From: Escherichia coli
Lineage (GTDB): Bacteria; Pseudomonadota; Gammaproteobacteria; Enterobacterales; Enterobacteriaceae
NCBI RefSeq assembly: GCF_009931435.1
Contig: NZ_CP043414.1
DNA: 64,000 nt
Strand: one strand, 5' to 3'
The position numbers were made by a program. Below are positions 41,201 through 44,200 of this stretch, piece by piece (the first letter of the stretch is position 1; every line of letters begins with the position of its first letter).

Positions 41201-44200
41201 ACGCGTTGTTGGGCTAATGAAATCATCGCCATTCTGATAGTTGTGTTCCCCTACGCCAACATAGGCCAGCACATGATCGGTGTTGGTAATCGCTACCGCA
41301 TCGGCGTGAATATCATCGCGAATAATTTCACAAACTTTGCGTAATGACTCGCTATTGACATGGCGAAACAGCGGTAGCGTTTTGTTGGCGATATCCAGCG
41401 CCAGCTTGGCCTGCCGCGCGGCGCTGGCCTCTTTTTCGCCCTCAACGCTTTGCACCAGCAGCACAATAAAGCCGATACAGACGCTACCGAGGATCATTGG
41501 AATCCCGATTTTAGAGACGATATCGATCCCCAACGCGGTAGTTGGTGCCCAGACAATCACCAGAATCATGGTCAACGTTTCACACAACATGCCACCGAGA
41601 ATACCGACGCGCCAGCGCTGTGCTTTGGGGATTTTCAGGTTAATCCAGCCTGATATGCAACCCGCGAGAATACTGGTGATAAAGCACGGAATTGCCGTCA
41701 CGCCGCCGATGTCAATTAAATAACGGTGAATACCCGCAATCACACCGGTTATGATGCCTACCCACGGGCCAAATAGAATTCCGCCTGACATCACCGCGAT
41801 AATACGCACATTAACCAGCGAGCCTTCTACGGGCACGCCGGACTAGGTGCTGAACAGGGCGAACAGCGAGAAAATGGCGGTAACGGCGAGCAGCTCTTTT
41901 GGGGAGTGTGCCGACTTGTGCAACAGTTCGCGAAACAGGCGGATACGGATAAGAAAGAACAGGCAGATAAGCATTAACGCTGCCCGATCGAAGACCGCCA
42001 GCAGCATGTTGAATATTTCGTGCACGGGTGACTCTGAATAAGGATTAAACCTCTATGATAGGTAACCTGAAGGCTGATGACCAGCAGGCCGTTTTTGAGG
42101 AAAAACCACAATTTTAAAAGGGGATTGAAAGATAAATGGTGTATTAGCAATGCATCTCTTGATAATGCATATCTGTTTGGTAAATTTATTGAAATTATAA
42201 TGTTAATAGATTGAGTGGTAATTTTCTTGTTAGCGTAGATAAATTTCCTGTTTTTAAAGCGGAGTTCCTCATTTAAGGCTATTAACAAAAATGTTCTAAA
42301 ACGCTGGACAGACAGAAATTAATCAGGCTATTTTCAAAACAGCCACCATCGTGGCAGCGTCGCTCGGACGGTCCGGGCGCTCACGTTAATCTGAGGAAAT
42401 TATGGCTGACACTCGCCCTGAACGTCGCTTTACGCGTATTGATCGTCTCCCACCCTACGTTTTTAACATTACCGCTGAACTGAAAATGGCTGCGCGTCGG
42501 CGCGGCGAAGATATTATCGATTTCAGTATGGGTAACCCGGACGGTGCGACCCCGCCGCATATCGTCGAAAAATTATGTACGGTGGCCCAGCGACCGGACA
42601 CGCATGGTTATTCCACCTCGCGTGGTATTCCGCGGTTACGTCGCGCCATTTCCCGCTGGTATCAGGATCGTTACGACGTCGAGATCGACCCGGAATCAGA
42701 GGCTATCGTCACCATTGGCTCGAAAGAGGGGCTGGCGCATCTGATGCTGGCGACGCTGGATCACGGTGACACTGTACTGGTGCCTAATCCAAGCTACCCG
42801 ATTCATATTTACGGCGCGGTGATTGCCGGGGCGCAGGTACGCTCAGTGCCGCTGGTGGAAGGTGTCGATTTCTTCAACGAACTGGAACGCGCCATTCGCG
42901 AAAGTTATCCGAAACCGAAGATGATGATCCTCGGCTTCCCGTCGAACCCAACCGCGCAATGCGTGGAACTGGAATTCTTTGAGAAGGTTGTGGCGCTGGC
43001 GAAACGCTACGATGTGCTGGTGGTCCATGACCTGGCCTATGCCGATATCGTCTACGATGGCTGGAAAGCGCCGTCAATCATGCAGGTGCCAGGTGCACGC
43101 GATGTGGCGGTAGAGTTCTTTACGCTGTCGAAAAGCTACAACATGGCGGGCTGGCGTATCGGCTTTATGGTCGGTAACAAAACGCTGGTCAGCGCGTTGT
43201 CACGTATTAAAAGCTATCACGATTACGGCACCTTTACGCCGTTGCAGGTGGCGGCGATTGCGGCACTGGAGGGCGATCAACAGTGCGTGCGCGATATTGC
43301 CGAACAGTACAAACGCCGCCGTGATGTACTGGTTAAAGGGCTGCATGAAGCGGGCTGGATGGTCGAAATGCCGAAGGCTTCGATGTATGTCTGGGCGAAA
43401 ATCCCGGAACCATATGCGGCCATGGGCTCACTGGAATTTGCCAAGAAAATGCTTAACGAAGCGAAGGTCTGTGTCTCTCCAGGGATTGGCTTTGGCGACT
43501 ACGGCGACACCCATGTTCGCTTTGCGCTGATTGAAAACCGCGATCGTATTCGCCAGGCGATTCGTGGAATTAAAGCGATGTTCCGTGCCGACGGTTTACT
43601 ACCCGCCAGCAGCAAACATATTCACGAAAACGCGGAATAAACACCATCGTCAGAAATGCAAACAGGAGCCAGATGGCTCCTGTTTTTCATTGCACAGTTT
43701 GCTTTTAGATCATCAGGGCAAAAGTACCGGCCCATACGATGACCATAAAAGAAATGCCCATAAAGAAATATTTCACTTTACATCTCTCCGCGTAATTACT
43801 GTTACGCCTGAATGACTTCATTACACCTGATACAGTGAGTTGACACCGGGCAAAACGACCTTAAAAGTCCTGCATTTTACCGTGGGCATCACCTCAGAAT
43901 TCTGAGCTAAACTGCTCGAGACGGCGCTAATGTACGCCTAAAACTGAAACGAGACAAGAGGCATTTTCTTATTTACTTTTAGTAACTTACAGGTGTCTCA
44001 TATCGGCGACAGTTTAATTTCTGACGGTAATAATTAGAGATTCAGCGAAGGAAAAAACCTTAAGAAAAAAGCCATAAAAACCATGAGGTTATTATGGCTG
44101 ATTTGAGGAGGGAAAGAGTAAGAGCAGTTTGTTAAATGTATAACGACGATTCACCCACCGGGCGCGTTTTAAAGCGACGGTGGATCCAGAGGTATTGCTC

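Follow-up and report, generated by a model that had tools for sequence, protein, structure and literature searches.

Has this Escherichia coli isolate really lost YpdA, the sensor kinase of its YpdA/YpdB pyruvate system, through the single stop codon that interrupts the gene in the window (the whole stretch of DNA analysed here, 64,000 nt in length)? Or is the stop circumvented by the translation machinery, favoured by selection across the species, or no more than an error in the assembly? We consider these possibilities in turn, starting with the gene itself and with the age of the stop, since the position of the changed base turns out to bear both on its origin and on its credibility.

A single amber codon in an otherwise intact ypdA

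The interrupted gene and its stop are located as follows.

40328..42025, minus strand: ypdA (pyrS) frame, 565 codons plus terminator, with a GTG start at 42025.
41843..41845, minus strand: amber TAG in place of Trp61 (TGG), seen on translation; the relatives L001, L002, L022 and L023 all have TGG.

Translated in a single frame from 42025 to 40328, the gene comprises 566 codons, among them a lone internal stop (codon 61) besides the natural terminator; on the minus strand, the surroundings of this stop read CTG TTC AGC ACC TAG TCC GGC GTG CCC GTA GAA GGC (L F S T * S G V P V E G). The first-pass annotation of this DNA had described the two ypdA ORFs as one frame split by a lone TAG at codon 61, and the plus-strand CTA at 41843-41845 as a CCA in intact genes. 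Translation and the ORF list bear out the former, and the relatives, which have CCA on the plus strand, the latter. The Trp-containing K-12 sequence given there (..ALFSTWSGVPVEG..) was also right, the 565-aa protein obtained by restoring TGG being an exact match to YPDA_ECOLI, and the comparison with other isolates that it called for gives TGG in all four relatives listed above.

The identity of the gene is supported by synteny, by Pfam architecture, by the layout of one frame in which a Trp codon has become amber, and by the presence of intact ypdB and ypdC genes. The order alaC-ypdA-ypdB-ypdC-fryA is common to the window and to annotated E. coli relatives, with alaC upstream of ypdA on the opposite strand, and ypdB, ypdC and a fryA-type ptsP downstream. 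In Pfam, the TGG-restored protein matches 5TM-5TMR_LYT (residues 28-192, 2e-42), GAF (6e-07), His_kinase (4e-25) and HATPase_c (7e-11). Both this LytS-type architecture and the position of the gene between alaC and ypdB-ypdC-fryA are those of a YpdA (PyrS) orthologue. The uninterrupted 565-codon frame of such an orthologue is broken by the TAG at codon 61, and ypdA, as it stands in the window, is a YpdA orthologue that has become a recent nonsense pseudogene.

The two genes that follow it are the cognate response regulator and a third member of the cluster.

39579..40313, minus strand: ypdB (pyrR), an intact LytTR response regulator of 244 aa (Pfam Response_reg and LytTR).
38709..39566, minus strand: ypdC, an intact AraC-family regulator of 285 aa (Pfam HTH_18/HTH_AraC), third gene of the cluster.

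The start codon of ypdB is a GTG located 14 nt after the ypdA terminator, with GGAG 8 nt upstream. This gene had been called intact, and we agree: its Pfam domains are whole and its DNA is identical to that of L022, in which it is also called intact. The DNA of ypdC is likewise identical to that of L022, where it is annotated as intact. The locus, the gene order and the domain architecture are those of K-12 YpdA/YpdB (PyrS/PyrR), a low-affinity pyruvate-responsive LytS/LytTR system; reverting the stop makes the window YpdA identical to the K-12 protein, and both downstream regulators, YpdB and YpdC, are intact. The difference lies in the kinase gene: cut at codon 61 in the window, it is whole in K-12, as it is in essentially every complete genome.

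A stop private to this sequence and probably young

The relative L022 (contig ERR6140658_115), found by an exact-protein look-up with the FryA of the window, is 99.986% identical to the window over 14,496 nt, with no indels and two differences, at positions 34891 and 41844. At 41844, L022 has C (giving TGG and a 565-aa YpdA) and the window has T. The difference at 34891 is synonymous in ypdF, and the base of the window at this position is common to L023, so that the amber is the only private change of the window in this 14,496-nt stretch. Further away, positions 8366-20908 (12.5 kb) are 100% identical to two further assemblies. None of the complete RefSeq E. coli genomes is identical to the window in the ypdA region; in the best of them, strain 2017-02-2CC, TGG versus TAG is the only difference within the initial 261 nt of this region.

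A broader search gave the same picture. A 44-mer across the site and carrying the amber allele is found exactly in 0 of 5,178 matching complete E. coli genomes and with a single mismatch in 5,176 of them, TGG being present in essentially all. The allele had no hits in GTDB representative genomes (scanned with a 41-mer) or in JGI metagenomes (scanned with a 36-mer). Exact look-up in a collection of 15 billion proteins returned no downstream products of 502, 493 or 488 aa; the 487-aa product was present only on unrelated contigs, most of them broken at this point and with an identity to the window of about 96%. The amber on the ypdA background of the window is a singleton in the public data searched.

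At codon 61, a sense codon in L022 and in the species as a whole, the window has a stop, as expected of a recent nonsense pseudogene, and ypdA contains no further disabling changes, the rest of the protein being identical to K-12 YpdA. Furthermore, ypdA alleles that are 55-93 nucleotides apart differ by only 0-2 amino-acid changes, which indicates strong purifying selection on YpdA. Since the window gene and the other carriers of truncated alleles (see below) are otherwise without decay, we think that such null alleles are young and short-lived. One nonsense pseudogene among the approximately 55 genes of the window is statistically unsurprising for a natural isolate, in view of typical E. coli pseudogene loads. 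A Shigella origin, which a pseudogene could suggest, was considered and rejected, because the window is devoid of IS elements and its nearest relatives are assemblies of E. coli.

A Dcm-site cytosine as the probable source of the mutation, or possibly of an error

The change at codon 61 affects a short motif.

41843..41847, plus strand: CTAGG, a destroyed Dcm site (CCAGG in relatives), from the comparison with L022.

The changed base, 41844, occupies the inner, Dcm-methylated cytosine position of this site (C in L022, T in the window). There are 177 ways in which one substitution could create a stop in ypdA, and only one of them, the codon-61 amber, falls on a Dcm 5-methylcytosine position. 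An ancestral CCWGG with C-to-T at the inner cytosine is the footprint expected of deamination: Dcm methylates CCWGG, and deamination of 5-methylcytosine produces a T:G mismatch in CTWGG, which leads to a C-to-T mutation when very-short-patch repair misses it (PMC2715241). In the case of ypdA, the proposed route would be the conversion of 5-methylcytosine to thymine by deamination at the inner cytosine of the Dcm site, with a T:G mismatch escaping very-short-patch repair, which would leave a plus-strand C-to-T change at 41844 (CCAGG to CTAGG) and, on the coding strand, an amber TAG instead of the TGG of Trp61. Judging from the sequence context, this is the most likely origin of the stop. The amber hotspots of lacI, located at CCAGG, were reportedly attributed to 5-methylcytosine deamination by Coulondre, Miller, Farabaugh and Gilbert in 1978, and they display the same signature (CCAGG to CTAGG, inner C to T, in-frame TAG). 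The lacI hotspots come from a selected mutant collection, whereas the ypdA event is found in a natural genome (the dcm gene itself is absent from the 64,000-nt window).

All this leads us to favour, with a probability of about 0.65, a recent, strain-private ypdA null allele that arose by Dcm deamination and deprived the strain of its cognate low-affinity pyruvate sensor. The position of the changed base is nevertheless double-edged, because a Dcm 5-methylcytosine provides both a mechanism and a specific risk of artefact. The genome could in fact carry TGG, a methylation-induced miscall at CCAGG having been kept in the consensus. With default models, about 70% of nanopore consensus errors are located in Dcm motifs, and no more than 70-80% of these were corrected by polishing (PMC6591954). 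The base concerned here is exactly the methylated C of such a motif, and the allele is a singleton, with C in the closest relative and no amber in other public assemblies of the same background. However, of the 31 Dcm sites in the 14.5 kb that the window has in common with L022, the other 30 are unaltered, and the assembly looks clean, with zero indels relative to L022 and the 12.5 kb that are 100% identical to two other assemblies. A second difference in a Dcm motif, at 57107, seen in the comparison with another relative, is common to a complete genome, and is a real polymorphism. Finally, several assemblies from other lineages, independent of one another, have the same TGG-to-TAG change, which tells us that this mutation does occur in nature. 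We consider an artefact somewhat unlikely in this case.

An excess of Dcm-motif differences, which 57107 had led us to suspect as a mark of nanopore error, was rejected, because the T at 57107 is shared with strain 2017-02-2CC and the base at 34891 with L023.

In short, we are dealing either with an ordinary knockout, recent and private to the strain, or with an error of base calling. More generally, nonsense calls at the inner C of CCWGG warrant a check of the reads before gene loss is declared, because real mutations and nanopore errors both concentrate at this position.

What could still be made from the interrupted gene

The stop leaves two ORFs in the ypdA frame.

41843..42025, minus strand: N-terminal residual ORF, 60 aa, with hydrophobic segments 1 and 2 only (ORF list and hydropathy).
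40328..41836, minus strand: downstream in-frame ORF from the GTG at codon 64, 502 aa (ORF list); a possible reinitiation product.

YpdA has seven hydrophobic segments in hydropathy plots, and residues 1-60 correspond to the first two, which are joined by a positively charged loop. Translation would end after these 60 residues, covering two of the seven predicted membrane helices. A structural guide is provided by BtsS (YehU), a paralogous seven-helix high-affinity pyruvate receptor which is encoded elsewhere in the genome by a gene of its own, outside the window, and which is also a possible substitute kinase for YpdB (PMC9765748). BtsS is 29% identical to YpdA over 516 residues. Its seven-helix, N-terminus-out topology, with which the hydrophobic segments of YpdA agree, has been determined by experiment, and its pyruvate-binding residues are R72, R99, C110 and S113 (PMC10653868). 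In our alignment these correspond to R74, R101, C114 and T117 of YpdA (three of the four are identical, the fourth being Ser to Thr), all downstream of the stop, and W59 of BtsS corresponds to W61 of YpdA, a conserved Trp. The 60-residue product would have neither these residues nor the GAF, phospho-accepting His_kinase and ATPase domains, and for this reason the cognate low-affinity pyruvate sensor would be lost; we infer that such a peptide could neither sense nor signal.

The first-pass annotation had left the choice between a loss of signalling and an N-terminally truncated kinase started at the GTG two codons past the stop (codon 64), whose position, frame, coordinates and codon number are all as it claimed. 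Both proposals are reasonable, and the loss of YpdA function is the one that the sequence leads us to favour. Reinitiation at GTG64, 6 nt downstream of the stop, would produce a 502-residue kinase devoid of helices 1-2, and the sensor could then work although the stop is real. Indeed, this GTG is in the same frame and only two codons past the TAG, the removal of two helices is predicted to keep the orientation of the remainder, and the product would retain R74, R101, C114 and T117, together with all the cytoplasmic domains. There is also a precedent in lacI, from which restarts after early amber codons are known. On the other hand, no Shine-Dalgarno pairing was detected upstream of GTG64 (anti-SD duplex energy of +1.0 kcal/mol, versus -2.4 for the native start), so that a restart would have to rely on termination-reinitiation. 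In the Pfam analysis of the 502-aa ORF, the conserved 5TM-5TMR_LYT domain is cut to profile positions 38-167 and would miss positions 1-37. Moreover, alleles that are as many as 93 nucleotides apart encode the same residues 1-60, an invariance that points to their being required. A functional restart product from GTG64 appears unlikely, and we regard a sensor kept at work by this means as quite improbable.

It could also be imagined that the amber codon is read through, with a suppressor tRNA or programmed recoding allowing full-length YpdA to be made all the same. What can be said for this is a general point, namely that amber suppressor alleles exist in some laboratory E. coli strains. The first-pass annotation had suggested looking for such a suppressor, and none is present among the six tRNAs of the window (Lys-UUU, three copies of Val-UAC and two copies of Ala-GGC), which do not include a CUA anticodon. 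The base that follows the TAG is a U, a context of efficient termination. In addition, the stop is not conserved, the relatives and essentially all complete genomes having TGG, and this, with the absence of a CUA-anticodon tRNA from the window, is at odds with programmed readthrough. We give almost no credit to this explanation, and continue with a ypdA null allele as the preferred reading.

Stops at codon 61 in other lineages

The exact 60-aa N-terminal peptide (P0016, e.g. GAB7832083.1 and MSI38497.1) is present on 252 contigs in a public protein collection, and a true internal stop was found in all 24 of the contigs inspected. These loci encode a truncated peptide identical to that of the window, and several of them carry the same TGG-to-TAG change; they differ from the window in that others have TGA instead of TAG and in that their ypdA is only about 96% identical to that of the window at the DNA level, from which we conclude that their stops are independent events. 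Codon 61 is TAG in six of the sampled loci (L005-L009 and L011) and TGA in three (L003, L004 and L010), and pairwise distances define at least four TAG groups and at least three TGA groups. In public assemblies, codon-61 stops of the two types are present on at least eight other ypdA backgrounds. As controls, we searched the peptides that eight other nonsense changes of the transition type would leave (at W88, W127, Q136, W138, W159, Q192, Q205 and W306), and these were found on 20-99 contigs, with true stops in 4 of 24 for the largest of them, Q205, which consisted mostly of contig-end partials. Codon 61 thus appears to be struck more often than the controls, but the contrast between 252 contigs and 20-99 should be read bearing in mind that contigs are not independent events (one TGA clone accounts for 10 of the 24 sampled contigs), and that TGA is about as common as TAG. 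Unlike the lacI mutations, the TGA alleles of other strains do not fit 5-methylcytosine deamination, so that deamination cannot be the whole reason why codon 61 is often struck. The idea that this codon is a Dcm hotspot is only partly supported by these data.

One may ask whether selection favours or tolerates the loss of YpdA, codon 61 being a recurrent knockout site and YpdB being kept under the control of BtsS. The recurrence of the stops on at least eight other backgrounds, the abundance of the 60-aa fragment relative to the eight control fragments, and the 24/24 true stops, versus 4/24 for the largest control, all go in this direction. So does the situation in uropathogenic E. coli, in which the induction of yhjX needs BtsS acting with the non-cognate YpdB (PMC9765748). 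However, the allele is very rare, the amber being absent from all 5,178 complete genomes, and the contig counts call for the caution mentioned above. Every carrier is otherwise undecayed, a pattern expected of short-lived, mildly deleterious alleles. We find selected loss improbable.

A stronger version would make codon 61 a species-wide, recurrent switch-off, i.e. a slow, methylation-driven on/off polymorphism whose losses are buffered by BtsS. The Dcm site would make TGG-to-TAG changes unusually frequent, very-short-patch repair of CTAGG T:G mismatches to CCAGG could raise the rate of reversion, and, since BtsS remains able to drive YpdB, the loss of a low-affinity sensor might be tolerated or even, for a time, favoured. 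We hold this scenario to be very improbable.

These recurrent stops could provide a modest illustration, from nature, of a mutational hotspot linked to Dcm, and they leave the current understanding of the YpdA/YpdB system unchanged. With respect to the window, there is nothing new in kind: this is a nonsense pseudogene produced, most probably, by a textbook mechanism, and public databases already contain truncated alleles that encode this peptide.

Consequences for pyruvate signalling

YpdA/YpdB is an accessory system of lower affinity, which responds above approximately 600 µM pyruvate and which many relatives, Salmonella among them, do not have (PMC5552118). Provided that the base call is right, the isolate is without its cognate low-affinity pyruvate sensor kinase, and the phenotype should be modest and limited to the strain. 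The loss of YpdA need not silence YpdB, because cross-regulation from BtsS to YpdB has been published, and YpdB could possibly still be driven by this non-cognate kinase. The induction of yhjX, the target of YpdB, at high pyruvate may then weaken or fall to BtsS cross-talk.

A second effect might concern the genes downstream. Beyond the stop, the ypdA mRNA contains C-rich, G-poor stretches, which makes some Rho-dependent polarity plausible in this untranslated RNA. The expression of ypdB and ypdC could possibly be lowered by such polarity over about 1.5 kb of untranslated ypdA mRNA.

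Stops and other breaks in the ypd cluster

A premature stop at codon 61 of ypdA (TGG in intact relatives) is not confined to the amber type carried by the window, since the same codon has become TGA in three of the loci compared from public assemblies (L003, L004 and L010). Among the sampled contigs the two stops occur at about equal frequency, TGA in 12/24 and the Dcm-type TAG likewise in 12/24, and the TGA is present on three ypdA backgrounds. Deamination of 5-methylcytosine is no explanation for the change from TGG to TGA.

Other members of the cluster, besides ypdA with its codon-61 stops, are also disrupted in some strains. 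The regulator gene ypdB is split (121 + 103 aa) in L011 (4758-5492), a locus whose ypdA carries the codon-61 amber as well, and ypdC is split (239 + 46 aa) in both L003 (8460-9316) and L018 (2226-3082). In L020 (4151-5850) a frameshift divides ypdA into 78 + 487 aa. Furthermore, in many independent public assemblies the contigs end at the same two points of ypdA, namely near codon 78 (L014-L019 and L021) and at codon 204 (L040-L046), and this recurrence suggests insertion-sequence insertions in ypdA of other lineages. Several partial proteins carry the label Shigella sonnei.

Lineage of the window and its differences from other genomes

The window belongs to an uncommon lineage of E. coli. The comparison, which covered positions 30000-54000 and 1-24000, found that the closest complete genomes (2017-02-2CC, R32_14_1F and 2020CK-00188) are just 98.9-99.2% identical to it, and in the ypdA-fryA region the loci of other strains are about 96% identical.

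The nucleoside-salvage region of the window (13800-20600) is unlike the K-12 type and contains three genes:

13985..14764, minus strand, Tsx-like channel
14949..16262, extra nucleoside:H+ symporter
16317..17246, nucleoside 2-deoxyribosyltransferase (PF05014)

After these three come xapA and xapB, whose DNA is only about 78% identical to that of the K-12-type genes, and yfeR appears to be absent. The same cassette is 100% identical to that of two other public loci (L034 and L031).

At position 57107, between evgA and emrK, a CCAGG Dcm motif of the relative L024 has its outer C replaced by T in the window; no other difference separates the two over about 18 kb (43449-61610). Strain 2017-02-2CC has the same T, and the difference is therefore a real polymorphism.

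Finally, the yfeA reading frame (24065-26323) encodes 752 aa from its first ATG versus the 729 aa called in relatives; an exact look-up found no record matching the 752-aa product, and the discrepancy is probably merely one of start site.
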